This document shows, in pieces, positions 10,699-58,706 of a stretch of DNA of 64,000 bases. The notes under the pieces are model-generated. The model searched no databases. It saw nothing but the letters and a program-made list of their open reading frames with translations, and was not told where the DNA came from. The translations under genes and the position numbers were made by a program. The stretch comes from Candidatus Muiribacteriota bacterium (GTDB taxonomy: Bacteria > Muiribacteriota > Muiribacteriia > Muiribacteriales > Muiribacteriaceae), in the NCBI GenBank assembly GCA_051747805.1, contig JBNJGP010000001.1, positions 5,281 through 69,280 of the forward strand, read 5' to 3'. The stretch's first letter is position 1, and each line of letters opens with the position of its first letter.

Positions 10699-12411
10699 AT
10701 GATTAGAAAAACTAAAATTTTCCTTTTGTTTTTACTTGTTTTTTCATTTACTTTTTTTGCATATGAGTATGATCAGGGAGTTACTGTTGAAGGAAATGAC
10801 GTTTATTTTAGATTCTGGGCGCCAGGCAAACAGACCGTATCTGTTGTTGGTGATTTTAATGACTGGGACAAAGAAGCCAACCTTTTAGAACTTGATGGTA
10901 ATGGATATTGGAAAACTCATATTCAGCTTTCAAATGGTCAATATAGATATCAATACCTGATTAATGGTGAAAAGTATATTGGTGATCCATATGCTCGTGA
11001 GGTTGACTGGGACTTTCATGGTCCTAATGCTGTTTTAAGAGTTGGAGAACCTGAATTTGAATGGACTAATGATGATTTTCACATGGCTAATCAGAACGAT
11101 TTAATAATATATGAAATGCATATAGGTGATTTTTCTCCGGAAGGTACATTTAACGGTGCCAGGGAAAGAATACCATATCTTGCAGAGCTTGGAATTAATG
11201 CTGTTAAAATAATGCCAATTAAAGAATTTCCAGGAGATATTTCATGGGGATACAATCCGGCATATTATTTTGCGCCTGAAAACGCTTATGGTACACCTAA
11301 TGAATTAAAAGCTTTGATAAATGAACTTCATAATAACGGTATAGGAGTAATTCTTGATAATGTATTTAATCACTGTTCACATGACCACCCTTTTAATCAT
11401 CTTTACAATTATCATTCAAATCCATACTTTAATAATGTTGGTAATGAATGGGGAATGCCTAACTTTGATGTCTGGGCAGATGCGACAAAAAGACATGCCC
11501 GCGATGTTGTCCATTACTGGGTGAGAGAGTTTAGAATTGACGGCTTCAGATATGATTATACAAGTGGTATTGGATATGATGGCACAGATGGTATGAGTTT
11601 TATTTCCTGGGAGGCAAGAATGGCTGGTAATGCCATGGGTAAATATATTTATCAAATTGCAGAAAATCTCCCAATGAACCCGCATATGACACATACAACT
11701 GAAATAGATGCTCAGTGGAATGATATTTTTCATCATCAGTTAAAGGCAAATCTTCGTGAGGGAAAGTATAAAGATGACTTTTACTTTGGAAATCTTAAAA
11801 GAACTATGCAGGGAATTGATTATGAACAGCTTGGTTATAATGATCACACTCAGGTAATTAATTTTACAGAAAATCATGATGAAGAGCGCGTAATATATGA
11901 GGCTATGACTAATCCTCATATTGATTATCATAAAGCTGTTAGAAAGGCAAAACTAGGCGCAGTTGCTCTATTTACTTCAGCCGGGGTGCCTATGATTTAT
12001 CATGGTCAGGAGTTTGGTATGGATAGTGCTAGAACACTTGATCCGAATAAGATTGATTGGGATAAGTTAAACGAAAGTTATCCCGGCAGTGAATTATATT
12101 CTCATTTTAGGGCACTTATAAATTTAAGGAAAAATCATATGGCTTTAAGACAGAATAATATTGAAGAGGTTTACAGATATAATAATGAAAACGTCTTAAT
12201 TTACAAAAGATGGGATAATCATGGTGATATAATAATAGTTGCTCTGAATTTCTCAGATCAGGATCAATGGGTTGATATACCTGTACCTCATGATGGAACA
12301 TGGCATGAATATTTATTTGATTATAAAGCAAACGCTTCTTCTGGAAAAATTGCCGATGAGCAAATACCGCGTTCTGGGGCTAAAATATTCAGCTTGAAAA
12401 AAACATGGTAG
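10699..12411 (+). CDS. Secreted GH13 alpha-amylase-family glycoside hydrolase with N-terminal CBM48/E-set domain
   Basis: Signal peptide. VYFRFWAPGKQTVSVVGDFNDWD (CBM48 as in branching/debranching enzymes). GH13 regions DGFRYD, ENHDE, VLDNVFNH. RBS GGGGGA. Confidence 0.8.
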   Translation: MIRKTKIFLLFLLVFSFTFFAYEYDQGVTVEGNDVYFRFWAPGKQTVSVVGDFNDWDKEANLLELDGNGYWKTHIQLSNGQYRYQYLINGEKYIGDPYAREVDWDFHGPNAVLRVGEPEFEWTNDDFHMANQNDLIIYEMHIGDFSPEGTFNGARERIPYLAELGINAVKIMPIKEFPGDISWGYNPAYYFAPENAYGTPNELKALINELHNNGIGVILDNVFNHCSHDHPFNHLYNYHSNPYFNNVGNEWGMPNFDVWADATKRHARDVVHYWVREFRIDGFRYDYTSGIGYDGTDGMSFISWEARMAGNAMGKYIYQIAENLPMNPHMTHTTEIDAQWNDIFHHQLKANLREGKYKDDFYFGNLKRTMQGIDYEQLGYNDHTQVINFTENHDEERVIYEAMTNPHIDYHKAVRKAKLGAVALFTSAGVPMIYHGQEFGMDSARTLDPNKIDWDKLNESYPGSELYSHFRALINLRKNHMALRQNNIEEVYRYNNENVLIYKRWDNHGDIIIVALNFSDQDQWVDIPVPHDGTWHEYLFDYKANASSGKIADEQIPRSGAKIFSLKKTW

Positions 12412-12467
12412 TTTGATAAAATATATTAATTAATGTATTAAATATAGTTGGCTTGGGGTATGTTTAG

Positions 12468-13277
12468 TTGTTAAAAAATAAAAAAGTTTTAGTTGTTGAC
12501 GATGAGAAAGATATTTTAAATATTATTGAGTTTTTCTTAAAAAAGCATGGTGCAAACGTGTTGAAGGCGCCTGATGCTTTTTCCGGTCTTGAATATATTT
12601 ATGATTCAGAAAATAAAATTGATATAGTTCTTCTTGATATTATGCTTCCAATACTTGATGGGTTTCAGGTGGCAAAAATTCTTAAAATGCAGAGGGATTA
12701 TAATAAACTGCCTATAATAATGCTTTCGGCCCTTGGGGAAAGTGAAAATATTAAAAAAGGGTTTCAGGTTGGTGCCGATGAATATATTGTCAAACCAGCT
12801 TCTGAAGAATTTATTGTAGATACAATTAAGAATGTTTTGAAAAAAAATGAAAAGCTTATAAACTCAGGAAGAATGTACAACATAAAATTCGAGCTTAAAA
12901 GTGATTTTTCATATATTAAAGAAATCAATGATATGGCCAAATGGATTTTCTCAAATACAGTTGCTCAGGAACAGATGGTGTCGGATTTGATTTATTCTTT
13001 GAATGAAATGTGTGCAAATGCTATTGAGCATGGAAATCGCAAACAGGTGGAAAAAAAGGTTTTTGTCGAATGTGATGTTTTTAAAAATAAAATTATTATT
13101 TCAATAAAAGATGAAGGAAAGGGATTTGATCCTGTTGATACATTAGATCGGCTTGAAAACGCCGATATGTTCAGGATGCGCGGTCGTGGAATGTTGATAA
13201 CCAGAAGTTTAATGGATGAAATTGAGTACAAGGAAAATGGAAAAAAAGTCGTAATGGTTAAAAAGTTTAATTCATAA
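12468..13277 (+). CDS. Response-regulator receiver fused to RsbW/SpoIIAB-like GHKL serine-kinase (anti-sigma factor-like) domain
   Basis: TTG start. REC: VLVVDDEKDIL...VLLDIMLPILDG...YIVKP. C-terminal HATPase_c_2: EMCANAIEHGNR (N-box), KDEGKGFD, GRGMLITRSLMDE (G-box). Confidence 0.75.
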   Translation: MLKNKKVLVVDDEKDILNIIEFFLKKHGANVLKAPDAFSGLEYIYDSENKIDIVLLDIMLPILDGFQVAKILKMQRDYNKLPIIMLSALGESENIKKGFQVGADEYIVKPASEEFIVDTIKNVLKKNEKLINSGRMYNIKFELKSDFSYIKEINDMAKWIFSNTVAQEQMVSDLIYSLNEMCANAIEHGNRKQVEKKVFVECDVFKNKIIISIKDEGKGFDPVDTLDRLENADMFRMRGRGMLITRSLMDEIEYKENGKKVVMVKKFNS

Positions 13278-14726: not shown

Positions 14727-16115
14727 TTAAAGTGATTCTTTTAATGATTTTAGTTTTGTTGTTTCTGGAAGATTTTTTGTAAGGTCGTCAAATATTGATG
14801 AGAAAAATTCAATTTTACCCTGTTTTTGATAAATATCATGAAGTTTTATTATATATGCCTCTTTTTCAAGAGGGGTTTTAGACAGGCTAATTAGTTTCTC
14901 AACATAAAACAGGGTTTTATTTAAATCTTTATTTTTATAAAAGTTAAAACCCATATTTAAAGTTTCAATATCATTTAAGGCAAAAACTCTTTCAAATTGA
15001 AGAGCTTTTTTAACGTCTGTTTCTTTATAAAGAGAAAGTAATGTTTCATTAATTTTATTAGAGTTAAGATAAAGCAGTTTTTTTCCTATTTTAACTGCAG
15101 TATCTAATTCCCCGCTTTTTTTTAAACCAGTTATAAGTTGTATATATTCATCTATATTATCTGCAGAATATTCACTCATTTCAAAAAATGAAGAGGCGGC
15201 CCCGGTAAAATTTTTTTCTCTTAAATTAGATTTGAACTCAAAATAGTTTTTAATAATTTCAGAGTTTATTTTACTGTAATCTATTTTGTCCTGTTTTGTT
15301 TCTTCATTTTTTAAAAAAGAAAAAACTCTGCCTTTTTTATCATTAGTTATATTATTATAAGCGAAAATATCTTTCTGTATGTTATGAAAATGAAAGTTAG
15401 ATAAAAAAATAATTGTGAGTAATATAAAAATTGAAATGATAGATATAAAAGTATATTTCTGGTTTTTTTCGATTTTTTTTATAGTTTTCAGTAAAAAATA
15501 TTTATCAGAATTTTTATTTTCAGTTTTTTGAACAGAATCAAATTCTGAAGCAACAGGGCTATCTATAAGTTCTTCAATATTTTTATGGGAATTAATAATA
15601 TTTTTAACACTTTCATAAGCGCTTTCTTTTATCTGCTGGTCATCGGAGTATAAAAACACATTAAAATCATTTGATATAATGTTGTTAATGATAAGGTAAT
15701 AAGAATTCCAGGCGTTAATTTTTATTAACTGATTACCGCTTTCGGTTAGAGGTTTTATTAAATTTAATATATCAGGATTTGAACATTTTCTGATAGATTT
15801 TAAGGTGTTCAGCTTAATATCATTATCCCGATGATATAATAATTTTTTAAGAGAATCTTTAATTTTGACAAAAGGAAGCTCGTTAATCAGGGTTATAATA
15901 AAGTTTCTAATTTCTGTGTTAAAGAGACTGAAATTTTTTAACAGATTATTTAAAGCACTGTAGTCTTCAAGAATTCTAATATATTCAAGAAACTTAATTT
16001 TATCCTGATTTGTAATATTTTCATTCTGTAAAAATTCTACAGCATTATTTTTATTTATAAAAACGTTTTTCCCCTTTTTATAAAGGAGTTTGTCGTTTAA
16101 ATATTTTTCAATCAT
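14727..16115 (-). CDS. Membrane protein: cytoplasmic HEAT/PBS-like repeats, single TM, periplasmic TPR-like helical domain
   Basis: Repeats around LKKLLYHRDNDIKLNTLKSIRKCSNPDILNLIK. TM segment YTFISIISIFILLTIIFLSNF. C-terminal half is helical-repeat-like. Start overlaps the upstream small ORF (ATGA). Confidence 0.5.
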   Translation of the reverse strand: MIEKYLNDKLLYKKGKNVFINKNNAVEFLQNENITNQDKIKFLEYIRILEDYSALNNLLKNFSLFNTEIRNFIITLINELPFVKIKDSLKKLLYHRDNDIKLNTLKSIRKCSNPDILNLIKPLTESGNQLIKINAWNSYYLIINNIISNDFNVFLYSDDQQIKESAYESVKNIINSHKNIEELIDSPVASEFDSVQKTENKNSDKYFLLKTIKKIEKNQKYTFISIISIFILLTIIFLSNFHFHNIQKDIFAYNNITNDKKGRVFSFLKNEETKQDKIDYSKINSEIIKNYFEFKSNLREKNFTGAASSFFEMSEYSADNIDEYIQLITGLKKSGELDTAVKIGKKLLYLNSNKINETLLSLYKETDVKKALQFERVFALNDIETLNMGFNFYKNKDLNKTLFYVEKLISLSKTPLEKEAYIIKLHDIYQKQGKIEFFSSIFDDLTKNLPETTKLKSLKESL

Positions 16116-16300
16116 TTTTTCTTTTTATCAGATTTTTTTTTAGGTTGATTATTGTTTTTCATTTCTTCTCTTAATTCTTCAAGAACTTTTAGATTATATT
16201 TAACCTCGTTTTTATTTATGATGTTCATATCGTTCATTTTTTTAAAAATATTGTCAAGATTTTCGGCCAGTTCATAGTTTATAAATTCTTTGTAATCCAT
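16112..16300 (-). CDS. Small (62 aa) protein with Lys-rich C-terminal tail, translationally coupled to the downstream membrane protein
   Basis: MDYKEFINYELAENLDNIFKK...KKKSDKKKK. 4-nt ATGA overlap with the next gene. Divergent from the REC-STAS gene. Confidence 0.4.
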   Translation of the reverse strand: MDYKEFINYELAENLDNIFKKMNDMNIINKNEVKYNLKVLEELREEMKNNNQPKKKSDKKKK

Positions 16301-16415
16301 ATTAAAGCTCCTTCCTGTAATTTTTTTGATTTTGTATTTTTGTTTAATCTAACATAAACTTGAAATTAAATCAATTATACGATACTCTTAAAAAAAAATT
16401 CAAGGTATTTCAAGT

Positions 16416-17786
16416 ATGATATTAAAATTAGTAGATGAATTAAAAGAAGAAGATGTTTTAGCCAAGGAAGTAACTCAGCGTGATTCAATTTTATATAAGT
16501 CTGGTAAAGTAATTTCTGAGGACGTTATAAAAAAAATAAAATCACTTGGGATTGGGTTCGTTTATATTGAAGGAAAACCCGGGAAAGATGAGTTAATAAG
16601 ACAGTATAAAATTGAGTTAGAAAATTCACTGCAGACTTCTATTTCCGATGATGAGAAAATCACTTTTTTAATTAAAGAGAAAGTTTCAGCAGAGGATATT
16701 TTTTCTTTTTATGAAAAAATTAATGATATTAATGTAAAAAAAAATTATATTGATTATTGTTTTAAGGATTTTTCAGACAATATATTTAATTTCTTTTTAA
16801 AAAAAATACGGCATGGAATTGAACCTGAAATTGTCTTATATATACTGGATTATCTGGAAAAAAACATAAAGAATATTAATGCTGAAAGTATTATCACTCT
16901 TTATAAAAATTCTAATGCTGAAGTTGTTGAAAAGGTTAAAAATATTCTAAAAAACAATTATTCATTAAGACAGCTTTATGATTTAAAAAAAAGACTTGAG
17001 CTTAAAAACGAGAAGTACGATTTTTTTGACAAAGATGTAAACTTTAACCTTATGCCTCATAAATCTTTCTGGGATATTAGAATTATGGTAGTTTCAAAAA
17101 ATACTGTTGAGCATAATATATTAAAGAGCTATCTTGAAAACCTTGAAATGAACGTAAAGTATTGCGAACCAGATAAAGCCTATGATTTAATTTCCAGTTT
17201 TGATCCTTACATTATCTTTTTTGATTTTGACAGAATTAAAAATCCTTTGAATAAATTTCTATCTGTTTCAAATGAGTTTTATAAAAAGATTTTTTTTATC
17301 ATCAGTTCGAGTGCAGATATCAAACTTTTAAAAAAAACTATGAGGGCCGGGGCAGATTATTTTTTAAAAAAGCCATACTCGCTTCCAAAAATTCAGACTT
17401 ATCTTTCAAAGGCTGTAAAAAATGGCAAGCTGATAGAGCAGCTGGATTTATCTAATAATTTGCTTAAAGTTGATATTAGATATTTTGGTTATAAAATCAA
17501 GAAATTTGACTTTTATGGTGAGTTATCTGCTATGACAACAGATGAAATTAATGAACCTGTTTTAAATAATATTCAAATTGATAAATTTTATTTTTTTGAT
17601 ATGCAAAACTTAGACAGTATTGATATGTCGGGAGTAAGATTTCTTTTAAAAGTAAAAGATGTTGTTAAACAGAAAACAGCCGAGCTGTATCTGCTGAACT
17701 GTTCAGATAAAATTCTTGAACAAATGGGAAATTACAGTAATCATGTTAATATTGTAGAATCCTGGGAAAAGGCAATATGGGTTTAA
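16416..17786 (+). CDS. Multidomain signalling protein: N-terminal helical region, receiver-like domain, C-terminal STAS (anti-sigma-factor-antagonist) domain
   Basis: REC-like: IRIMVVSKNTVEH...YIIFFDFD...YFLKKP. STAS: FFDMQNLDSIDMSGVRFLLKVKD...LYLLNCSDKILEQMG (SpoIIAA-like DxSxxxxDSSG region, here DMSG). Confidence 0.65.
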   Translation: MILKLVDELKEEDVLAKEVTQRDSILYKSGKVISEDVIKKIKSLGIGFVYIEGKPGKDELIRQYKIELENSLQTSISDDEKITFLIKEKVSAEDIFSFYEKINDINVKKNYIDYCFKDFSDNIFNFFLKKIRHGIEPEIVLYILDYLEKNIKNINAESIITLYKNSNAEVVEKVKNILKNNYSLRQLYDLKKRLELKNEKYDFFDKDVNFNLMPHKSFWDIRIMVVSKNTVEHNILKSYLENLEMNVKYCEPDKAYDLISSFDPYIIFFDFDRIKNPLNKFLSVSNEFYKKIFFIISSSADIKLLKKTMRAGADYFLKKPYSLPKIQTYLSKAVKNGKLIEQLDLSNNLLKVDIRYFGYKIKKFDFYGELSAMTTDEINEPVLNNIQIDKFYFFDMQNLDSIDMSGVRFLLKVKDVVKQKTAELYLLNCSDKILEQMGNYSNHVNIVESWEKAIWV

Positions 17787-18286
17787 TCCGGAATTTTTTA
17801 TTTAATTCTGATAAAGAGGGCTTAAAAAGAAGAAAGTCTGAAAAAATAATTAACAGACATAATAATAAAATATTAAAAAGAAATTTTAATTTTAATGCCG
17901 AAGATATCCTGATATTAATGCCGCACTGTGTTCAGTATAAACTTTGTAAAATACGTATTACTTTTAATCCTGAAAATTGTAATCACTGTGGACAATGTGA
18001 TGTTGGAAAACTGGTAAATTATTGTAAAAATAATAATCTTAAACTTGCAATTGCAACAGGCGGTACACTTGCAAGACGTATTATCAGAGAAATAAAACCT
18101 TCCGCAGTTGTTGCGGTTGCATGTCATCGCGATCTCTTATCCGGACTGAAAGAAATAAAAAAAATACCTGTTATTGGAATCTTAAATCAGATTGGAGAAG
18201 ATGGTCCCTGTGTTTCAACAGGATTTGATTTGAAAGAAATAAAAAAGGTTGTTAATTTCTTTCAGGGTTTTGACAAAAAAAATTAA
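17777..18286 (+). CDS. Cys-rich conserved hypothetical protein (DUF116-like)
   Basis: CVQYKLCKIRITFNPENCNHCGQCDVGKL...IATGGTLARRI. Overlaps the upstream gene by 10 nt. The family assignment comes from memory of the motif pattern only. Confidence 0.4.
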   Translation: MGLIRNFLFNSDKEGLKRRKSEKIINRHNNKILKRNFNFNAEDILILMPHCVQYKLCKIRITFNPENCNHCGQCDVGKLVNYCKNNNLKLAIATGGTLARRIIREIKPSAVVAVACHRDLLSGLKEIKKIPVIGILNQIGEDGPCVSTGFDLKEIKKVVNFFQGFDKKN

Positions 18287-18314
18287 AAAATATATCATTT
18301 CTTCGAGGTCAATA

Positions 18315-19283
18315 ATGAAAAAGAAAAAAGACGGAAGTATATTTACTGCTATTTTATATATTATTACATTTGTGGTTCTGGTAAGAGGCATGTTTGTCGG
18401 AACTATTTATGTTATTGAGGATTTTTTTAACGAGGGGCAGGTTCGAGTTCCGGATTTTGTAGGAATGTCTCTTAATGATGCTATGGAACTGGCCCCCAGA
18501 TATAAACTGCGTCTTGAAGTTAAGGGTGAAGCCCATGATGAGCATCTTGAAAAAAATTATATTATTAAACAGGATCCTATTAGTAATTTTTCTGTAAAAA
18601 AAGGGCGCACAATTGAGTTTATAATAAGCAAAGGGAAAAAAGAAAGTATAACTCCCAATCTCAGGGGGATTTCTGTCAGAGAAGCAGAAAGAGTAATTCT
18701 TCAGAATAACTTTTCTATTGGACGTAAAAGCTACGTTTATTCTGATGAACCAGAGGGGGTTATTGTTTCTCAACAGCCTCTGGCTGGCATAAATTATAGA
18801 GAGGGGCAGTTTATAAGTATGCTTGTTTCCAAAGGTGATAAAACTGAGTATGTAATTCTTCCCGAATTTATCGGGGGGAATTATAATAATGTCAAAGATA
18901 CAATTAGAATGATGGGGCTTGAAGTTGGAAACATAAAATACGATTTTGCAGATGAAAAAGAACCCGGCGAAATAATTGATCAACAGCCAGCTTCTGGAAC
19001 CAGACTTGAAAAAGGGGCAGAAATAAACTTGAGAGTGAACCGGAATCGAACCACCAGCCGACAGGAAACCAAGAGAAAAACGGTGAATTTTGAATATGAA
19101 ATTCCAGACGGAAGAGGAGAAAAAGAGCTTAAAGTTATATTGATTGATGACCTCGGCATCAGAGAGGTTCACAGAAGCACATACTCTCCGGAAGCAAGAG
19201 CTTCTTTTACTTTGCATGGCAGCGGAAGAATGAAAGCTTTAATTTATATAGACAATTTAAAAGTCGATGAGAGAGAATATTGA
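18315..19283 (+). CDS. Membrane-anchored PASTA-domain protein (N-terminal TM plus three PASTA repeats)
   Basis: ATG at 18315 (MKKKKDGS) followed by TM FTAILYIITFVVLV. Three repeats of the pattern VPDFVGMS..A...L / ITPNLRGIS..EA / ILPEFIGGNY..V, each ending in xSKG/RVN. Also IIDQQPASG. Confidence 0.75.
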   Translation: MKKKKDGSIFTAILYIITFVVLVRGMFVGTIYVIEDFFNEGQVRVPDFVGMSLNDAMELAPRYKLRLEVKGEAHDEHLEKNYIIKQDPISNFSVKKGRTIEFIISKGKKESITPNLRGISVREAERVILQNNFSIGRKSYVYSDEPEGVIVSQQPLAGINYREGQFISMLVSKGDKTEYVILPEFIGGNYNNVKDTIRMMGLEVGNIKYDFADEKEPGEIIDQQPASGTRLEKGAEINLRVNRNRTTSRQETKRKTVNFEYEIPDGRGEKELKVILIDDLGIREVHRSTYSPEARASFTLHGSGRMKALIYIDNLKVDEREY

Positions 19284-20323
19284 AAATAATCGGACTAGTA
19301 TTAAAACAAAAATATCAGATATTACAGAGAATTGGAGAAAATGAAAGATTTTATACTTTCAGAGGAATTAATATAAAAAATGAATCTCCAGTATTTATCA
19401 AGGTTGTAAAGCAGTCACTTCTTAAAGATAAGAAAAAAATTAAATTTTTCACAGAAGAAGTAAAATCCCTTGCAAAAATAAAACATGAAAACGTAGTAAA
19501 AGTATATGATGTTGATTTTAAAAACGGTATTTTATATGTGGTTACTGAATATATTGAGGGAAAAAGTCTTTATCAGTATATAAGCCAGAAGAAAAAATTT
19601 GATTTCTGGCAGGTTATTCAGATTGTAAATCAGCTTGCCTCTGTTTTGAAATATGCCTTTGATAAGGGAGTTAAATACAGAACTGTTAAACATTCAAATA
19701 TAATTATTACAGATGATATGAAGGTTAAAATTTTATCTTTTAACGTTCCCAGGTCAATTTTATCTCCGCTTCCTGTTAAAATAAAAGAAAACGAGGGTAT
19801 TGACCCGGATATTTTTTTTCTGGGAGTTGTTTTATATGAACTTTTCACACTTAAGTTTCCTCTCAGGGATAAGGATTTACCTGTAACAGATATTTCTATG
19901 CTGGATGAAAATCTACTTGATACAAGGTGGAATATAACATTTGCAGATATTGAGTCTCCCGAAAAAAAAGAAGGAATTGAAAAAGTGATTTATCATTCAG
20001 TTACCCGTAATATACTTGATAGATATAAAAGTATTGAGGAATTTTTAGATGATTTAAAACAATATATAGAAAAAAAAGATAGAAAAGAAAAAACAATGAA
20101 AACTGCAAGTGATGTTACAAATGAACTCGGTGTTAATGAATATGTTTTTAATAAGAGATTTAATGGAAAAAATAAAAATTATTCTAAAAAAACAAAAGAG
20201 GATAAAATATTCAATATTCCAGAGGAAGAACCGGGAGTATTAAGAAAGCAGATAATATTTTTAGTTTCTGCCTTCTCGGTAATTCTTGCGTTAATTTATT
20301 TTATTTACACGCTTCTGTTTTAA
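19280..20323 (+). CDS. Ser/Thr protein kinase-like pseudokinase with C-terminal TM anchor
   Basis: Hanks fold is recognisable (beta3 Lys in VFIKVV, helix-C Glu in EEVKSLAKIKHENVV, APE-region DIFFLGVVLYELFTLKFPL). Catalytic motifs are degenerate: Gly loop GENERF, HRD replaced by YRT (VKHSN retained), DFG replaced by SFN. C-terminal TM IIFLVSAFSVILALIYFIY. 4-nt overlap with the PASTA gene. Confidence 0.7.
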   Translation: MKIIGLVLKQKYQILQRIGENERFYTFRGINIKNESPVFIKVVKQSLLKDKKKIKFFTEEVKSLAKIKHENVVKVYDVDFKNGILYVVTEYIEGKSLYQYISQKKKFDFWQVIQIVNQLASVLKYAFDKGVKYRTVKHSNIIITDDMKVKILSFNVPRSILSPLPVKIKENEGIDPDIFFLGVVLYELFTLKFPLRDKDLPVTDISMLDENLLDTRWNITFADIESPEKKEGIEKVIYHSVTRNILDRYKSIEEFLDDLKQYIEKKDRKEKTMKTASDVTNELGVNEYVFNKRFNGKNKNYSKKTKEDKIFNIPEEEPGVLRKQIIFLVSAFSVILALIYFIYTLLF

Positions 20324-20334
20324 GGGAGATTATT

Positions 20335-20973
20335 ATGTTAGTAGCACCATCAATATTATCTTCAGATTTTAATATACTTGGTGAAGAGGTTAATAATGTA
20401 AAAGAAGCTGGTGCCGACTGGATTCACGTTGATGTGATGGACGGGCATTATGTTCCTAATATTACAATTGGTCCAGTAGTAATTAAAAATTTGAAAAAAA
20501 TATCAGAAAATCTTATTCTGGATTGTCATTTAATGATAACCAATCCTGATAAATATATAGAATCTTTTGTTGAGGCCGGAGCCGATATTATAACTGTACA
20601 TTCAGAAACCTGCCCTCACCTTAATAAAACTCTGAATTATATAAAAGAACTCGGGATAAAGGCCGGAGTAACATACAATCCTGCCACTTCCATGAATAAT
20701 TTAAAATATATAAAAGATATTGTTGATGTTGTGCTTATAATGTCGGTTAATCCAGGTTTTTCAGGACAGAAATTTATACCATCATCATTAGAAAAAATTA
20801 AAGAGGTTAGACAAATCTGCCCTCCTCATGTAAAAATACAGGTTGACGGGGGAATTAATAATAAAAATATTGCTGATATAAAAAAAGCCGGTGCAGATGT
20901 TGTGGTTGCCGGGTCTTATATTTTTGGTTCAGATAATTACAGAGAAAAAATAGAGAGTTTAAAAAGAGGATAG
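20335..20973 (+). CDS. rpe: Ribulose-phosphate 3-epimerase
   Basis: MLVAPSILSSDFNILGEEV...HVDVMDGHYVPNITIGP...VDGG are Rpe hallmarks. RBS AAGGGAG. Confidence 0.9.
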   Translation: MLVAPSILSSDFNILGEEVNNVKEAGADWIHVDVMDGHYVPNITIGPVVIKNLKKISENLILDCHLMITNPDKYIESFVEAGADIITVHSETCPHLNKTLNYIKELGIKAGVTYNPATSMNNLKYIKDIVDVVLIMSVNPGFSGQKFIPSSLEKIKEVRQICPPHVKIQVDGGINNKNIADIKKAGADVVVAGSYIFGSDNYREKIESLKRG

Positions 20974-20977
20974 TAAA

Positions 20978-21958
20978 ATGGCAGAATTAAGGAAGGATCC
21001 AGTTTCACAAAGATGGATTATTATATCTGACAAGGAGTTAAATCCTGAAGATTATCTTTATAACGAGGCTAAGAATTCCAACAACACAGAAAATTGTCCT
21101 TTCTGCGATAAAAATTCACATATGATTGAAAAGGAGATTTTAAGAACATCATATAATAATCGATGGGCTGCAAGAATTGTAAATAATAAATTTCCTGCCC
21201 TGATTTCTGAGGTAGAGCTTGAAAAAGAGGCGGACGGTGTTTATGATAAAATGAGTGGTTACGGCTATCATGAGGTTATAATTGACAGTTATGAACATTT
21301 TGTCCCGTTTCACAAGACAAGTCCCGAAAAGATAGAAAAAGTTCTTGAGGCCATGGTAAAAAGGTACAGAGAATTAAAAAAAGATAAGAATTTAAAATAT
21401 GTACTTTTTTTTAAAAATTACGGAGCTTCTGCGGGGGCTTCACTTTCCCATTCACATGCACAGCTTGTTGCTACGCCTGTTGTTCCAAAAATCGTAATGA
21501 ACGAGCTTCTTTTTTCAAAAAAATATTTTAATTATAAAGAAAGATGTTTATTCTGCGATTTAATTAATCAGGAAAAAAAAGATAAAGAGAGATTAATAAC
21601 TTTTAATCAGGATTTTTATGCGTTTGTTCCCTATGCTCCAAGATTTCCTTTTGAAACATGGATTTTACCTGAACTTCATAATTCCAGCTTTGGAAATATA
21701 AAAAATTGTGAATTGAAAAATTTAGCTGTTATAATTAAAGAATGTATTAACAGATTAGAAAAAGTTTTTAAAAACCTTCCTTTTAATTTTGTAATACATA
21801 CAGCTCCTTTTGAAAATAATTGTGGGGATTACTATCACTGGCATATTGAGATTATGCCCCGGCTGACAAAGGTGGCCGGTTTTGAATGGGGCTCGGGGTT
21901 TTATGTAAATGAAACAAGCCCTGAAAAAGCTGCCGGGATTTTAAGAGAGGCATTTTAG
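20978..21958 (+). CDS. GalT-like (HIT superfamily) hexose-1-phosphate nucleotidyltransferase, paralog 1
   Basis: Zn-site CPFCDKNSH. HIT-type HSHAQ histidine motif (SLSHSHAQLV). C-terminal HWHIEIMPRLTKVAGFEWGSGFYVN, conserved with paralog 2. Confidence 0.75.
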   Translation: MAELRKDPVSQRWIIISDKELNPEDYLYNEAKNSNNTENCPFCDKNSHMIEKEILRTSYNNRWAARIVNNKFPALISEVELEKEADGVYDKMSGYGYHEVIIDSYEHFVPFHKTSPEKIEKVLEAMVKRYRELKKDKNLKYVLFFKNYGASAGASLSHSHAQLVATPVVPKIVMNELLFSKKYFNYKERCLFCDLINQEKKDKERLITFNQDFYAFVPYAPRFPFETWILPELHNSSFGNIKNCELKNLAVIIKECINRLEKVFKNLPFNFVIHTAPFENNCGDYYHWHIEIMPRLTKVAGFEWGSGFYVNETSPEKAAGILREAF

Positions 21959-21975
21959 GAATAACTGGAGGTCTT

Positions 21976-23409
21976 ATGAATATTACCCATATTTGTTCAG
22001 AGTTAAATCCTTTTATAAAAACTGGTGGACTGGCCGATGTTACGGGGTCACTGCCAAAAGCTCAGGCTAAGTCTAAAAATGAAATAAACATTATTGTACC
22101 ACTTTATAAAGATATAATAGAAAATTATTCTCTGGATTACTATGCTGACTTTCCAATGGAAACGCCCCTGGGGCTTAAAACAGTTATTGTTAAAAAAACT
22201 AAAATTAAAAGAAAGTTGACAGTTTATTTTATAGGTGAACACTCCTATTTTTATAGAGATAAAATCTATGGTGATTATGAAGATAATCCGCAGCGTTTTG
22301 CATTTTTTTCAAAGGCGGCACTTAACTTTCTGGAAAAATATAATAATATTCCAGATGTTGTTCACTGTCATGACTGGCAGACCGGACTTGTATCTCTTTA
22401 TGCCCGGGGGAATAATAAATTTAAAAACACGGTTTTTGGTTATACTATTCATAATATAGCATTTCAGGGCTTATTTGATTTTACTGATTTATACTCTCTT
22501 GAGCTGAACTCCTATTATTTTACACCCGATAAGCTTGAATTCTTTGGAAAAGGGAGTTTTTTAAAAGCTGGTATTATTTATTCAGATTTTGTAAACACAG
22601 TAAGTCCAACTTATAGAGACGAAACCTTTACCCCAGAATATGGTTTTGGTCTTCAGGGGCTTCTTGAATGGAAGCGTAAGGATTATTATGGTGTTATAAA
22701 TGGAATAGATAAGGATGAATGGAATCCTCTCAAAGATAATAAAATATTTAATAACTACTCATATTTAAAAATTGCCGAAAAAGAACCTAATAAAAAAGAA
22801 CTTTTAAAAAAGGTAAATCTTCCCTTTAAAAAGGACAGGGCCCTATTTGTTTCAATAACTAGACTGGCGGATCAGAAAGGGATAGACCTTATTATTAATT
22901 CTGCCTCAAACATCGTGAAAAAAGGTCATTATCTCATAATTCTTGGAAGTGGGGACACTTTTTATGAAGAGCTTCTAAAAGAGTTTGAAAAAAAATTCCC
23001 TCAGAATATAAGGGTATTTCTTAGATATGATTTTGAACTTGCGCATCAGCTTTATGCTGGCGGTGATTTTTTTCTTATGCCCTCAAAATTTGAGCCCTGT
23101 GGTTTAAGTCAGCTAATATCAATGAGATATGGAAACATTCCTGTTGTAAGAAAAACAGGAGGGCTTGCTGATACTGTAGATGATTGGAGCGAAAAAGAAA
23201 AAAAGGCGACGGGATTTGTTTTCAGAAACTTTGACTCTGATTCTTTTAATTATACGATAAACAGGGCGCTTGATGTTTTTAAAAAAGAAAAAGATTTTAA
23301 AAGTTTAATTAAAAATTGTATGAAGCAGAATTTTTCATGGGATGAAACAGCCAAAACTTATAAGAAACTGTATGAAAAATATACAAAAAAAAATCCGGAG
23401 AAATATTAA
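21976..23409 (+). CDS. glgA: Glycogen/starch synthase (GT5, NDP-glucose dependent)
   Basis: N-terminal KTGGLADV motif, HCHDWQTGL, C-terminal GGLADTV. RBS GGAGG. Confidence 0.9.
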   Translation: MNITHICSELNPFIKTGGLADVTGSLPKAQAKSKNEINIIVPLYKDIIENYSLDYYADFPMETPLGLKTVIVKKTKIKRKLTVYFIGEHSYFYRDKIYGDYEDNPQRFAFFSKAALNFLEKYNNIPDVVHCHDWQTGLVSLYARGNNKFKNTVFGYTIHNIAFQGLFDFTDLYSLELNSYYFTPDKLEFFGKGSFLKAGIIYSDFVNTVSPTYRDETFTPEYGFGLQGLLEWKRKDYYGVINGIDKDEWNPLKDNKIFNNYSYLKIAEKEPNKKELLKKVNLPFKKDRALFVSITRLADQKGIDLIINSASNIVKKGHYLIILGSGDTFYEELLKEFEKKFPQNIRVFLRYDFELAHQLYAGGDFFLMPSKFEPCGLSQLISMRYGNIPVVRKTGGLADTVDDWSEKEKKATGFVFRNFDSDSFNYTINRALDVFKKEKDFKSLIKNCMKQNFSWDETAKTYKKLYEKYTKKNPEKY

Positions 23410-23411
23410 CA

Positions 23412-24422
23412 ATGAGAGATTACAGAAAAGACCCAATTACACGACGCTGGGTAATAATATCTTCTGATAGAAGCAAGAGACCAAGAGATTTTGGTCATGT
23501 AACAGATATTACTGATGACAAAAACTGCCCTTTCTGCGAAGGAAACGAAGATATGACTCCTCCTGAAATTTTTGCACTCCGGGAAAATGGCGAAGAAAAC
23601 GGCCCAGGGTGGAAGGCAAGAGTAATTCCTGACAAATATTCCATTCTTGAAAATAGAGGAGATGTTAAAAAAAAGGGCCATGGTATATATGATAGCATGA
23701 GTGCCACAGGATTTCATGAACTTATAATAGAAACGCCTAATCATATGGGAAGTCTTGCAAATTTAAGTTTTGATGAAATAAAAACCTATTTAAAGGTGTT
23801 AAAAACAAGAATGGGGGAACTTAAAAACGATTATAGAATACAGTATATACTTGCCGTTAAAAATTATGGATCTGAGGCAGGGGCCAAGTTTAAACATTCA
23901 CATTCACATTCTCATATTGTTGGCCTGCCTATTGTTCCAAAAAGAGTTAAAGAAGAGATTGACGGAGCAAAAGAATATTACAGCTTCCGGGAAAGATGTG
24001 TATTCTGTGATATTGCCGCCCAGGAACTTGCTGAAAACGAAAGAATAATATTAAATAATGAGGATTTTATATCATTATGTACATATGCGGCCCGGTTTCC
24101 ATATGAAACACATATTTATCCTAAAAAACATATTTCATCCTTTGAGGATACGCCTGAGGAAATGTTTGATAATCTGGCCCGTATTTTAAAAAAAACTATT
24201 TTATCTTTATGTAAGGTTATTGATACATTAGCCTATAATATAGTTATTCATACTAAACCAGTTAACCAGGTTGTGCCTGTTTTATATCACTGGCATATTG
24301 AAATAATGCCTAGAGTAACAAAAGTTGCAGGGTTTGAATGGGGTTCAGGTTTTTATATTAATTCTGTTCTTCCTGAAGATGCTGCAAAGTTAATGAAAGA
24401 AAAAATTAATGAGGGGGTTTAA
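23412..24422 (+). CDS. GalT-like (HIT superfamily) hexose-1-phosphate nucleotidyltransferase, paralog 2
   Basis: CPFCEGNEDM, FKHSHSHSHIVGLP, HWHIEIMPRVTKVAGFEWGSGFYIN. Same architecture as 20978..21958. Confidence 0.75.
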   Translation: MRDYRKDPITRRWVIISSDRSKRPRDFGHVTDITDDKNCPFCEGNEDMTPPEIFALRENGEENGPGWKARVIPDKYSILENRGDVKKKGHGIYDSMSATGFHELIIETPNHMGSLANLSFDEIKTYLKVLKTRMGELKNDYRIQYILAVKNYGSEAGAKFKHSHSHSHIVGLPIVPKRVKEEIDGAKEYYSFRERCVFCDIAAQELAENERIILNNEDFISLCTYAARFPYETHIYPKKHISSFEDTPEEMFDNLARILKKTILSLCKVIDTLAYNIVIHTKPVNQVVPVLYHWHIEIMPRVTKVAGFEWGSGFYINSVLPEDAAKLMKEKINEGV

Positions 24423-25835
24423 ATGAAATTTTATAATGATGGATGGTATGGTAAAATTTCAGATGATTTTATTTATTCTAATATTAAAACCCTGGCCAAA
24501 GCTATTGCTAAATACATAATTTCTCATGATCTTGCTAAAAAAAAGGTGATAATTGGTTATGATAGCCGTTTCTTATCGTATGAGCACGCTCAGCTTGTAG
24601 CAGAGGTGCTAATGGGTAATAAACTTGACTGCTGTATTTCCGATAGAGATGTTCCTTCTGTTTTTACTGCGGCAACTTTGAAAAGTTATAAAGGGGCCTC
24701 TGCTGTTCATATTACCGGGCAGAATCAGAAGTATTTTAACAATGGGCTGCTTTTTTTCCCCGAATATGCCGGTCCTCCTTTCAGCCATATTTCAATGGAA
24801 ATTGAAAGAAATATCAGATTGATTAAAGACCTTGATGAAGAAATCGAAATAAAAGGTTTTCAAAAGGGAATTGCCGTAAACTCTCTTCAGGCAATTGATT
24901 TTTACTCAGAATATGCAAAATGTGTTAACAGAATAATTGATTTAAAGAAATTTAAGGATAGTGATTTAAAGATTGTAGTTGATTATATGAATGGCAGTAT
25001 GAGGCATTTTTTAAATAAATTAGTACCAAGAGGGGTTGAATGGATAGAATTAAATCATACATTTAATCCTTATTTTAATGGAATAAAGCCTGACCCTGTT
25101 TCAGGTAAGCTGGAATTTCTTGTAGAAAACATTAAAAATACTGAGGCTGATTTTGGTGTGGCTTTTGATTCTGACGGTGGAAATATATGTTTTATTGATT
25201 CAAATGGACAAAAAATCCATAGGGATATTCTCCTTGGAATTGTTCTTGAATATATTATTAAAAACAAAACTAAAAATGGAATTGTGGTTAAAACAAATTC
25301 AACTACCTCATTAGTGGATGAAGTTTGTCAGAAAAATGGAGTTGAAATAGAAGAAACATATTCTGGATTCAGGCATATTGTTGAAAGATTAATTAAAAAC
25401 AAGGTGATTCTCGGAGCTGATAATTCTGGTGGTATAACAAGTTCTGATCATGTTCCCGTTAAAGATTCAGTTCTTTTTCTTCTTTATATAATTGAAATAA
25501 TGAGTCTGAAGAAGAAATCCCTGACTGAACTGGTTGAGGAATTCAATAGCGAGTATGGACAATTTTATTCAAAATGTTTTGAAATAAAACATAATTCAGA
25601 AGAGGAAAAGCTTAGAATAATTAGTAAATTAAAAAAATTCAGTGATTCTTTCAGAGAAGAAGATATAAAAGATATTTATCAAACAGATGGTTTAAAAATG
25701 ATATTTAAAGATAAAAGCTGGTTTTACATTAGAATTCACTCTGCGGCATTAAAATCTGAGGTTATTATTGAAAGTCAGGATAAAAATATTACAGAAAAAC
25801 TTCAGAATAAAATAAATAAAATCTTAAAAGATTAA
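24423..25835 (+). CDS. Alpha-D-phosphohexomutase superfamily protein (PGM/PMM-like), divergent active-site loops
   Basis: Domain II metal loop AFDSDGGNICFID (cf. DGDGDR). Domain III ADNSGGITSSDHVPVKD (cf. GEESFGTGSDHIREKDG). The catalytic phosphoserine loop (T/SASHNP) is not recognisable; the closest is GASAVHITGQN. Confidence 0.6.
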   Translation: MKFYNDGWYGKISDDFIYSNIKTLAKAIAKYIISHDLAKKKVIIGYDSRFLSYEHAQLVAEVLMGNKLDCCISDRDVPSVFTAATLKSYKGASAVHITGQNQKYFNNGLLFFPEYAGPPFSHISMEIERNIRLIKDLDEEIEIKGFQKGIAVNSLQAIDFYSEYAKCVNRIIDLKKFKDSDLKIVVDYMNGSMRHFLNKLVPRGVEWIELNHTFNPYFNGIKPDPVSGKLEFLVENIKNTEADFGVAFDSDGGNICFIDSNGQKIHRDILLGIVLEYIIKNKTKNGIVVKTNSTTSLVDEVCQKNGVEIEETYSGFRHIVERLIKNKVILGADNSGGITSSDHVPVKDSVLFLLYIIEIMSLKKKSLTELVEEFNSEYGQFYSKCFEIKHNSEEEKLRIISKLKKFSDSFREEDIKDIYQTDGLKMIFKDKSWFYIRIHSAALKSEVIIESQDKNITEKLQNKINKILKD

Positions 25836-25846
25836 GGGGATTTTTT

Positions 25847-26389
25847 ATGCATATCAGGAAAAATTATTTTGTTGATAAGGGTTTTCAGACTGAAATTATA
25901 TTTGCTCTGCTTTTTTTAACTTTTTTTATTATTTTCATAACTTTTTTTAATCTGTATTTTTTTGTAGAGTATTTTACTTTAAACGTTCTTGAACCTGAAG
26001 AGTATAAGCAGTTTACACTTCTTTTATCAAAAGCCTGGACGCTTTTGAGTGATAAAATATTTTTTTTGCTTTTTATTGACTTTTTGATAATTGTGTTTGT
26101 TGGATTATTTCTATCTCATCAGATAGCAGGACCTGGTTTTAAATTAAAAAAATCCATAAATAAAATTGCAGATGGCAACTTAAACTTTAAAGTAAAGCTG
26201 AGGCAGGGAGATAAGTTCGTATCAATGGCTGAAAGTTTAAATTATTTAATTGAAAAATATCAGAACAGGTTTAAATCATTAAAATTTTATACTGCAAAAC
26301 TTAAAGACTCAATTATTGAGAAAAAGGACAAAGAGGCCCTGGAAAATCTTGGGGAAATTGAAAAAAATATGGATGAAATAAATTTTTAA
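25847..26389 (+). CDS. Small membrane protein with two TM helices and a HAMP-like domain, no output domain
   Basis: TM1 IIFALLFLTFFIIFITFF and TM2 FFLLFIDFLIIVFVGLFL, followed by the HAMP-like sequence LSHQIAGPGFKLKKSINKIADGNLNFKV. Ends at 180 aa. RBS AAGGGGA. Confidence 0.45.
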   Translation: MHIRKNYFVDKGFQTEIIFALLFLTFFIIFITFFNLYFFVEYFTLNVLEPEEYKQFTLLLSKAWTLLSDKIFFLLFIDFLIIVFVGLFLSHQIAGPGFKLKKSINKIADGNLNFKVKLRQGDKFVSMAESLNYLIEKYQNRFKSLKFYTAKLKDSIIEKKDKEALENLGEIEKNMDEINF

Positions 26390-26391
26390 TA

Positions 26392-26985
26392 ATGATTTTA
26401 GGTATTTGTGGAAAAATTGGCAGTGGAAAAACATTGTTGTCTGAATTTTTTAAAAATAATCAAAACAGTTATATAATTAACTGCGACAAACTGGCCTCAG
26501 AGTTAATTAACGATAAACAGGAAATTCTTGAATTAATTTCAAAAAATTTCGGCTCCAAACTGATTATAAATAATCAGCTGAATAAAAAAATGATGAGAAA
26601 AATTGTCTTCAATGATAAAAAAAGTCTTTATAAACTTAATCAGATAGTTCATCCCTTTCTTTTTAATGAAGTGAAAAATATTTTAAATATAGAAGAGCTT
26701 AAATCTGAATACAGTTATATAGTTGTAGAGGCTGCTGTTTTATATGAAGCTTCTTTATATAAGCTTGTTGATAAAATTATATGGGTGAGTGCAAAGCTGC
26801 ATAATATACTTCAGAGAGTAAGTTTAAGGGATAAAGATAAAAGAAAAAATATTGAAAATATATACAAAATTCAAAAATCATATAATGAAGTGCAACCAGA
26901 GCCTGATATAGTTATAGAAAATAATAAAACAGTCAATGAATTTAAAAAAAAAGCAGGGAGTCTTGTTGCCTCCCTTAATAAATAA
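26392..26985 (+). CDS. coaE: Dephospho-CoA kinase
   Basis: P-loop ILGICGKIGSGKT at the N-terminus, ~197 aa, CoaE-like layout (HP motif in IVHPFL). Confidence 0.75.
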   Translation: MILGICGKIGSGKTLLSEFFKNNQNSYIINCDKLASELINDKQEILELISKNFGSKLIINNQLNKKMMRKIVFNDKKSLYKLNQIVHPFLFNEVKNILNIEELKSEYSYIVVEAAVLYEASLYKLVDKIIWVSAKLHNILQRVSLRDKDKRKNIENIYKIQKSYNEVQPEPDIVIENNKTVNEFKKKAGSLVASLNK

Positions 26986-56741: not shown

Positions 56742-57290
56742 ATGAACAGAGAGATTAAAAACAAAATTCTGGATATTGCTTATAAATCTATTTTACATTT
56801 TATTGAAAATAAGGAATTAATTTCTGATTCCCAGCTGAAAATTGATGAAATTAAGGAGCTCAAAGATAAAAGAGGAGCTTTTGTTCTGCTTAAAGATAAA
56901 GAAAGTGATGAGCTTATAGCTTATGAGTATAATATTAATTCTAAAAGGTCTCTATATTTAAACATAAGAGACTTAGCTGTAAAATGTATAAAAAGAGATT
57001 TTAAAGATATTTTGTCCACAGTCGTGGAGCTGAATAAAATTAAGTTTCAAATTATACTTCCTTATAATCTTAAAGCCTGTAGAAAAAAAGAAAATATTGA
57101 AAAATCCAGCCAGGGTATATGTATTCAGTATATGAATAAAACCGCCGCAACTGTTCCTTTTTTAATTAATAAAAAAGAAAAATTAGATAATATACTACAA
57201 AATCTTTGTATTGAGGCAGAACTGCAAAAAGATTTTTATTTGAATGATAATCTTATTTTGTTTACTTTTGATATATTAAATATTTCATGA
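56742..57290 (+). CDS. Hypothetical cytoplasmic protein
   Basis: ATG at 56742 with AAAGGGGAA RBS; the ORF-track start at 56643 lies upstream of the RBS. Stop overlaps the start of the histidine-kinase gene. Confidence 0.45.
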   Translation: MNREIKNKILDIAYKSILHFIENKELISDSQLKIDEIKELKDKRGAFVLLKDKESDELIAYEYNINSKRSLYLNIRDLAVKCIKRDFKDILSTVVELNKIKFQIILPYNLKACRKKENIEKSSQGICIQYMNKTAATVPFLINKKEKLDNILQNLCIEAELQKDFYLNDNLILFTFDILNIS

Positions 57291-58663: not shown

Positions 58664-58706
58664 TGGATTTAAACATAAATAGAAAAACAAAGAAAGGAAT
58701 TAAATT

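Follow-up and report, generated by a model that had tools for sequence, protein, structure and literature searches.

We analyzed a 64,000-nucleotide (nt) stretch of the Candidatus Muiribacteriota contig JBNJGP010000001.1, referred to below as the window, and focused on a gene at positions 16416..17786 of its positive strand (stop codon at 17784-17786). The gene encodes a 456-amino-acid (aa) cytoplasmic protein, which we found to be a four-module STAS scaffold. A small beta-hybrid domain, a helical repeat and a degenerate receiver precede a STAS domain of the SpoIIAA class, and a methionine occupies the position at which anti-sigma antagonists are phosphorylated. The explanation that we tentatively favor is that this multidomain protein belongs to a partner-switching-type module, that its most likely partner is an LvrC-like REC-RsbW protein encoded at 12468..13277 of the positive strand, and that its STAS domain is not phosphorylatable in this lineage. 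The domain folds and identities, the key residues, the distribution of the family, the synteny and the overlap with the downstream DUF116 gene are what the analysis showed.

The STAS gene starts with ATG; its reading frame of 456 codons was as originally predicted and is conserved in relatives. The protein is 100% identical to an NCBI entry annotated as "STAS domain-containing protein" from a Ca. Muiribacteriota metagenome-assembled genome (MAG), and full-length orthologues with 39 to 50% identity are present in four further lineages of the phylum (P0002, P0003, P0004, which is the M. halophilum orthologue, and P0125). Thus, the family is real and conserved and does not represent a chance open reading frame (ORF). 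When 1.84 billion representative proteins were searched exhaustively with a HMMER profile, four full-length relatives were returned, each scoring more than 546 bits, whereas the next score, 71 bits, belonged to domain-only matches. P0125 was the only relative gained by this search over a word-index search. The word-index search, a scan of species-representative genomes and a scan of metagenome contigs led to the same lineages and to none beyond them. Among named relatives, the family is confined to this one uncultured phylum, which was the source of every named relative or locus.

A confident model of the protein, predicted with AlphaFold2 (AF2) from only four sequences, had a mean predicted local distance difference test score of 87.6 and resolved four modules, all encoded on the positive strand. 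The first (aa 1-55; 16416..16580) is a small beta-hybrid domain similar to DUF3391, for which a weak Pfam match was found at aa 25-61. About ten helices make up the second (aa 56-215; 16581..17060), a HEAT/ARM-like alpha-helical repeat. The third (aa 216-336; 17061..17423) is a receiver-fold domain without the acidic Mg2+-binding pair, that is, a pseudo-receiver, and the fourth (aa 337-456; 17424..17783) is a STAS domain of the SpoIIAA/RsbV, or anti-sigma antagonist, class. The original prediction, made from the DNA letters and their ORFs, had described a receiver fold followed by a STAS domain. That order held, but the N-terminal 215 residues with the beta-hybrid domain and the helical repeat had been overlooked.

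What is new is that a SpoIIAA-class STAS domain is fused to a degenerate receiver and a beta-hybrid/HEAT-like scaffold, even though every single domain of the protein belongs to a familiar family. No solved chain matched the receiver and STAS modules together. As potential REC-STAS relatives elsewhere, we inspected the 20 top matches of the exhaustive search and rejected them all, since they were REC-REC tandems, multi-STAS proteins, histidine-kinase fragments or spurious. The pseudo-receiver/STAS fusion was absent from these 20 matches and from the searched literature on REC-STAS proteins. Paralogy with the neighboring HEAT/TPR-like gene was also rejected, because the helical module shows no similarity to that neighbor.

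The predicted C-terminal STAS domain was borne out. It matched PF01740 at aa 364-437 with 36.6 bits (E = 4.1e-9) against a gathering threshold (GA) of 22.6 bits; the orthologue P0125 scored only 20.7 bits for the same family. Its modeled fold is that of SpoIIAA, with a four- to five-stranded beta-sheet and alpha-helices. The nearest matches in both sequence and structure were the anti-sigma antagonists 4hyl, SpoIIAA, RsbV and TM1081, and the RsbR chains 7o0i (by sequence) and 7b0u were only weaker matches. An MlaB-like or SulP-like STAS domain was rejected on account of weak scores, the lack of Mla or transporter genes nearby and the lack of a membrane domain.

The loop that carries the D-S-x-G phospho-acceptor motif in such proteins reads Asp403-Met404-Ser405-Gly406 here (17622..17633, positive strand). 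It is otherwise canonical (D..N....D-x-x-G), with D403 and G406 invariant. The family STAS profile, i-d-s-a-G, aligns to m-D57-S58-S59-G60 of SpoIIAA, and in a MAFFT alignment, SpoIIAA and the eight single-domain STAS proteins all had Ser in the acceptor column. The Ser of the DMSG motif, a possible counterpart of the phosphorylated Ser of SpoIIAA (Ser58) in the original prediction, aligns instead with the nonphosphorylated Ser59, and it is Met404 that falls into the acceptor column. Across the family, this column reads M, M, S, S and T: Met in the window protein and in its closest orthologue, P0002, Ser in P0003 and P0004, and Thr in P0125. The canonical phospho-acceptor that the original prediction assumed is therefore missing from the window protein, and Ser or Thr is kept in three of the five lineages. 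Such an acceptor-residue polymorphism within the STAS-protein family, as read from the aligned sequences, is new. Ser and Thr typically interchange at a retained phosphosite. The ancestral protein was probably phosphorylatable, given the Ser or Thr found in this column in three sister lineages, and the alignment suggests that the site was lost in the clade that holds the window.

Could the adjacent Ser405 have taken over? In the original prediction, Ser405 would be phosphorylated by the REC-RsbW kinase, and both partners would carry true phosphorelay receivers. Ser405 lies one residue past the canonical acceptor, at the N-terminus of helix alpha2 (the AF2 helix begins at residue 404), and the kinase is intact in the window lineage, as this model would have it. 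However, Ser405 matches Ser59 of SpoIIAA, and in STAS proteins with a true acceptor next to it, this second position of the motif is frequently occupied by Ser, Thr or Ala; Ser405 is therefore not a relocated acceptor. The known STAS antagonists SpoIIAA, RsbV, RsbS, HsbA and SypA are phosphorylated at the residue directly following Asp (PMC8256260), which also speaks against Ser405.

The second half of that model depends on the receiver-like domain. A receiver fold ahead of the STAS domain is indeed present in the AF2 model, in which aa 216-336 form a CheY-like (beta-alpha)5 fold. The Pfam match to PF00072 (aa 225-329) remained below threshold, at 18.3 bits versus a GA of 30.2, and phmmer searches of the PDB gave an E value of about 4e-4 to the receivers of SLN1 and NtrC1. 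This is the most conserved of the modules, with a mean pairwise identity of 47%. Asp270 (17223..17225, positive strand), the equivalent of the receiver phospho-acceptor Asp, is invariant across the five lineages, and so are Ser298 (the beta4 Ser/Thr) and Lys319 (the beta5 Lys), all of which would suit a functional receiver. In contrast, alignments to SLN1 and NtrC1 place Ser227-Lys228 (17094..17099, positive strand) at the positions of the Mg2+ ligands Asp12 and Asp13 of CheY. The Asp12 column reads S, S, S, S, T and the Asp13 column K, T, Y, T, N, with an acidic residue in none of the five lineages. Receivers without the acidic Mg2+ pair do not catalyze phosphotransfer. Judged by these residues, the domain is probably a pseudo-receiver and not a phosphorelay input. 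Its conservation pattern, including a beta5-alpha5 stretch, KPYSLP.IQ.YL, that is almost invariant in the family, fits a pseudo-receiver kept as an interaction surface. Because both acidic ligands are gone in all five lineages, a second receiver input is unlikely, contrary to the claim that both partners carry one. With the residues needed for phosphotransfer lost and Ser405 at a position equivalent to Ser59, we consider phosphorylation of Ser405 within a circuit of two working receivers very improbable.

The candidate partner at 12468..13277 does have a canonical receiver. It was predicted to combine a receiver with an RsbW-type domain, and both were readily recognized (Response_reg, 83.5 bits; HATPase_c_2, 77.6 bits). 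It is an LvrC-like response regulator whose C-terminal GHKL domain is of the RsbW type (serine kinase/anti-sigma-like). The best PDB sequence matches of the GHKL domain were Leptospira LvrC (9qih; 1.4e-7) and Bacillus subtilis RsbW (6m36; 1.9e-7), and the whole protein matched 9qih with an E value of 3e-13. Its DD, D57, K109, N-box, G1 and G2 were invariant in six homologues, among them proteins from lineages with Met at the STAS acceptor column. A CBM48-alpha-amylase gene lies directly upstream of the RsbW-like gene in every locus that includes it, with a spacing of 56 nt here (window 10699-13277) and about 45 to 65 nt in related loci. In one M. halophilum locus (L001, 3988-4869, from an ENA assembly) the REC and kinase parts appear as split genes. 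We rejected this split as evidence of modularity, since it results from an in-frame stop within a short tandem duplication of FLVGADEYIVK. Another M. halophilum MAG (P0008) has an intact fused gene, and the L001 stop is an assembly artifact or a strain-specific lesion.

A distant REC-HATPase_c_2 homologue with 35% identity was found on the 9.6-kb contig FWPV01018050.1 (L007, 5977-8887), where it is followed by genes for a MeaB-like GTPase and a SpoIIE/PP2C phosphatase. The presence of a SpoIIE/PP2C gene two genes away ties this type of kinase to partner-switch chemistry. There was no STAS gene on this contig. The other distant REC-HATPase_c_2 loci contributed nothing relevant, with no STAS gene on the short contigs examined.

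Histidine kinases are also encoded elsewhere in the window. At 241-2901 lies the gene of a hybrid histidine kinase (PAS-GAF-HisKA-HATPase-REC-Hpt), which is non-syntenic in related genomes. By analogy with HptB and HsbR, this kinase could donate phosphoryl groups to the REC-RsbW protein. At 57287-60053, the gene of a histidine kinase precedes that of a sigma-54 enhancer-binding response regulator (REC-AAA-HTH_8); this is a second, apparently ordinary two-component pair.

In the module that we favor, the STAS domain would bind a GHKL protein of the RsbW type, for which the product of 12468-13277 is the best candidate, and the receiver of that protein would in turn be set by a histidine kinase. 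The pseudo-receiver would serve as an interaction surface of the STAS scaffold. With Met404, the STAS domain would act as a nonphosphorylatable binder, comparable to the S58A mutant of SpoIIAA or to RsfA of Mycobacterium tuberculosis. Its availability would be controlled through the receiver of the kinase and through its own N-terminal modules instead of a cycle of serine phosphorylation and dephosphorylation by PP2C, and something other than a sigma factor could be the output. Which protein is bound, which way the signal runs and what the output is are points that we infer here. There is published precedent for receiver-controlled partner-switch enzymes and for nonphosphorylatable antagonists (PMC8256260, PMC10950880), as well as for a non-sigma output of a partner switch (PMC13555669).

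The pairing of the two proteins is plausible on circumstantial grounds. Among ORFs of 100 aa or more, the 64-kb window encodes no other STAS or HATPase_c_2 protein, and about 3 kb separates the two genes in all related loci that are long enough to contain both. Several observations weigh against it. The two genes belong to different transcription units with two to four genes between them (two of them on the opposite strand in the window), and the STAS gene shows its closest conserved linkage with the DUF116, PASTA and pseudokinase genes rather than with that of the kinase. Synteny across the phylum extends over the whole region of about 25 kb, and the proximity of the two genes is therefore weak and unspecific evidence. 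Neither a PP2C phosphatase nor a sigma factor was encoded by any window ORF of 100 aa or more, or in the flanks of related loci (up to 10 kb on each side). The STAS domain scored 25 bits for the NCBIfam family of anti-sigma factor antagonists, TIGR00377, against a cut-off of 53.45. Furthermore, the catalytic residues of the kinase are intact in the two lineages whose STAS protein has no acceptor, so that its activity must have been kept for another substrate, or for Ser405. An ordinary stand-alone STAS protein elsewhere in the genome might be the true partner of the kinase. The best STAS-only matches from named sources came from Leptospiraceae, Tissierellia and Planctomycetota and were uninformative on this point.

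The DUF116 gene (17777..18286, positive strand) follows the STAS gene most closely. Its ATG at 17777 precedes the STAS stop codon, resulting in a 10-nt overlap, and the two genes are probably translationally coupled. In all five lineages they overlap or closely abut; one gene call leaves 22 nt between them. The product is Cys-rich, with a CxxCxxC motif, and matched PF01976 at 142 bits; beside this motif, there were weak matches to 4Fe-4S ferredoxins. A literature search on DUF116 returned only matches to DUF1162 and nothing relevant, and the searched literature on signaling in Muiribacteriota likewise yielded nothing.

Next come a PASTA-repeat membrane protein with three repeats (PASTA, 116 bits; 18315..19283, positive strand) and a Hanks-type pseudokinase with a C-terminal membrane anchor (Pkinase, 90 bits; 19280..20323, positive strand). 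The listed ORF of the PASTA gene starts at a TTG at 18249. Its start is likely the ATG at 18315, giving a 322-aa protein, because a GAGG lies upstream and the relatives are 320 to 323 aa long. Translational overlap had been proposed for all these downstream genes. It was found between the STAS and DUF116 genes and between the PASTA and pseudokinase genes (4 nt), but the DUF116 and PASTA genes are probably separated by a 28-nt gap. The pseudokinase has YRT in place of HRD and SFN in place of DFG, and both substitutions are invariant in three orthologues with 62 to 63% identity. By these motifs, the Hanks-type homologue is a binding-only, "dead" kinase under selection. The pair (18315-20323) resembles a PknB-type PASTA kinase that was split and permuted into a gene for a transmembrane segment with three PASTA repeats, followed by a pseudokinase gene; the same layout was seen at L001 12142-14123 and L004 11957-13951.

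The order STAS - DUF116 - PASTA - pseudokinase - Rpe was invariant wherever the contig was long enough, and this leads to a different explanation, in which the STAS protein serves the envelope-sensing genes co-transcribed with it as an adaptor, and the REC-RsbW protein is not involved. The membrane-anchored pseudokinase, the PASTA protein or the Cys-rich DUF116 protein would be bound through the STAS, pseudo-receiver or HEAT modules of this adaptor, and cell-wall or redox status would be relayed without phosphorylation to sugar-phosphate/glycogen enzymes or to another target. The invariant gene order and the overlap or abutment with DUF116 agree with this explanation, as do the loss of the canonical acceptor from the window protein and the near-invariance of the beta5-alpha5 face in the pseudo-receiver, which would be expected of a surface that binds other proteins. 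A dead kinase that is still 62 to 63% conserved must act by binding, which points the same way. However, an order of DUF116, a PASTA kinase and rpe is widespread in other phyla, and if this holds, the linkage may reflect inherited gene order and not function. The Ser or Thr acceptor in three lineages argues for a serine kinase, and the RsbW-like protein is the only active candidate nearby. Moreover, we know of no precedent for a complex of a STAS protein with a pseudokinase. We regard the adaptor explanation as unlikely on balance, though it is the main competitor of the favored one.

From 20335 to 26985 on the positive strand, the string continues with genes for Rpe, a GalT-like protein, a GlgA-like glycogen synthase, a second GalT-like protein, phosphoglucomutase (PGM), a 180-aa protein of unknown function and CoaE. 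According to the ORF positions, together with Pfam matches of the window ORFs and the syntenic loci, the same-strand spacing throughout this part is 18 nt or less. Operon continuity through 20323, as originally proposed, is plausible, and the STAS gene likely heads an 11-gene operon that extends well beyond this point, to about 26985. No strong terminator was found in 16416-20323 by a consensus scan, which is a weak test in AT-rich DNA. The 115-bp intergenic region upstream of the STAS gene (16301..16415, positive strand) is the probable site of its promoter and ribosome-binding site. A promoter scan was uninformative, with 58 sites versus 46 expected in this AT-rich DNA; promoter and terminator scans alike carry little information in DNA of 26 to 33% GC. 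On the other side of this region is a divergent ORF for a highly charged 62-aa product (16112-16300, negative strand), which shares 4 nt with the start of the gene for the HEAT/TPR-like membrane protein (14727-16115). A 51- to 60-aa equivalent was called at this site in all related loci that include it.

Both signaling genes sit in a glycogen/sugar-phosphate supercluster that includes the amylase, the two GalT-like proteins flanking GlgA, and PGM. The GalT/HIT-like paralogues (20978-21958 and 23412-24422), of the DUF4921/DUF4931 type, lie on either side of the glycogen synthase gene, an arrangement kept in those related loci that are long enough. One possibility is that they act as nucleotide-sugar phosphorylases in an unusual glycogen pathway.

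This neighborhood raises the idea that the STAS protein is a direct, sigma-independent regulator of a glycogen-cluster enzyme, e.g., the GlgA-like synthase or phosphoglucomutase, which it would bind via its STAS and HEAT modules. The STAS gene heads an operon with the genes for Rpe, both GalT-like proteins, GlgA, PGM and CoaE, and the position of the RsbW-like gene directly after the CBM48-alpha-amylase gene is constant. There is also a precedent in All4160 of Anabaena, where STAS phosphorylation controls a polysaccharide enzyme (PMC13555669). Nevertheless, the argument is one of guilt by association only; the STAS domain of All4160, unlike that of the window protein, is fused to the enzyme; and the operon also carries CoaE, an unrelated housekeeping gene. 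Direct enzyme regulation of this kind seems doubtful to us. A broader variant would be a sigma-independent switch found in Muiribacteriota alone, in which the REC-RsbW protein and the scaffold join a two-component signal to PASTA/pseudokinase envelope sensing and act directly on glycogen-cluster enzymes, the STAS acceptor having recently changed from Ser/Thr to Met. We consider this composite improbable.

If the pairing with REC-RsbW is correct, the window protein would be the first candidate STAS partner for the LvrC class of receiver-controlled RsbW-like regulators, and a partner-switch component bearing a degenerate receiver and a scaffold module. The Ser/Thr and Met lineages provide a natural comparison that could show how partner switches lose phosphorylation control. 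Should the sigma-independent switch prove real, the change from Ser/Thr to Met would amount to a natural experiment in partner-switch rewiring. The practical impact is limited, as the named relatives come from one uncultured phylum and the domain types are familiar. The findings are of interest to specialists in partner switching and bring no surprise of principle.

How does the protein compare with known systems? SpoIIAA and RsbV are single-domain STAS proteins, whereas the window protein has 456 aa, three extra N-terminal modules and Met at the acceptor position. The window STAS gene has no operon of kinase, phosphatase and sigma factor genes next to it. RsfA of Mycobacterium tuberculosis (Rv1365c) is a STAS antagonist that likewise has no acceptor Ser and responds to another input, a redox Cys (PMC10950880). 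RsfA, however, is a single domain that acts on the anti-sigma factor UsfX, and the window protein has no evident redox Cys pair. In having N-terminal input or effector modules fused to a STAS domain, which is C-terminal (or N-terminal) in this group, the window protein is similar to the multidomain proteins RsbR, YtvA, Rv1364c and All4160. In those proteins, the modules are globin, LOV, PAS-PP2C-kinase or glycosyltransferase domains as opposed to the beta-hybrid, HEAT-like and pseudo-receiver modules described here. No RsbS (a second STAS protein) was found in the window, nor was an RsbT-like kinase gene adjacent to the STAS gene in the window or related loci; thus, there is no evidence of a stressosome.

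The original prediction held that a circuit of this kind was uncharacterised, which is now only half true, because receiver-controlled switches are known and the REC-RsbW half has a precedent in LvrC (PMC13269768). Leptospira LvrC (lic11110; PDB 9qih, where it is labeled SenB), described in 2026, is a response regulator that combines Rec and RsbW-like domains (PMC13269768). It shares its two-domain architecture with the protein at 12468 and is only distantly related to it; neither a STAS partner nor a sigma factor has been identified for LvrC (PMC13269768). In other systems, receivers control the kinase and/or phosphatase that acts on a STAS protein, as in HsbR-HsbA of Pseudomonas, SypE-SypA of Vibrio, RsfR-RsfB of Mycobacterium and HenR-All4160 of Anabaena (PMC8256260, PMC10950880, PMC13555669). 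The receivers of HsbR, SypE, RsfR and HenR are part of a PP2C-containing enzyme, and their STAS partners carry no receiver. The window enzyme, by contrast, consists of REC and HATPase_c_2 only, and the STAS protein is multidomain, encoded at a nonadjacent site and equipped with a degenerate receiver.

The pseudo-receiver has counterparts of its own. Atypical receivers keep the central Asp, the Ser/Thr and the Lys, lose the Mg2+-binding acidic pair, and show a conserved alpha4-beta5-alpha5 face. The pseudo-receiver of the window protein is like them in the residues retained and lost, but it is fused to a STAS domain. Measured against all these systems, the STAS protein represents a known switch component in unusual form and not a new type of circuit.

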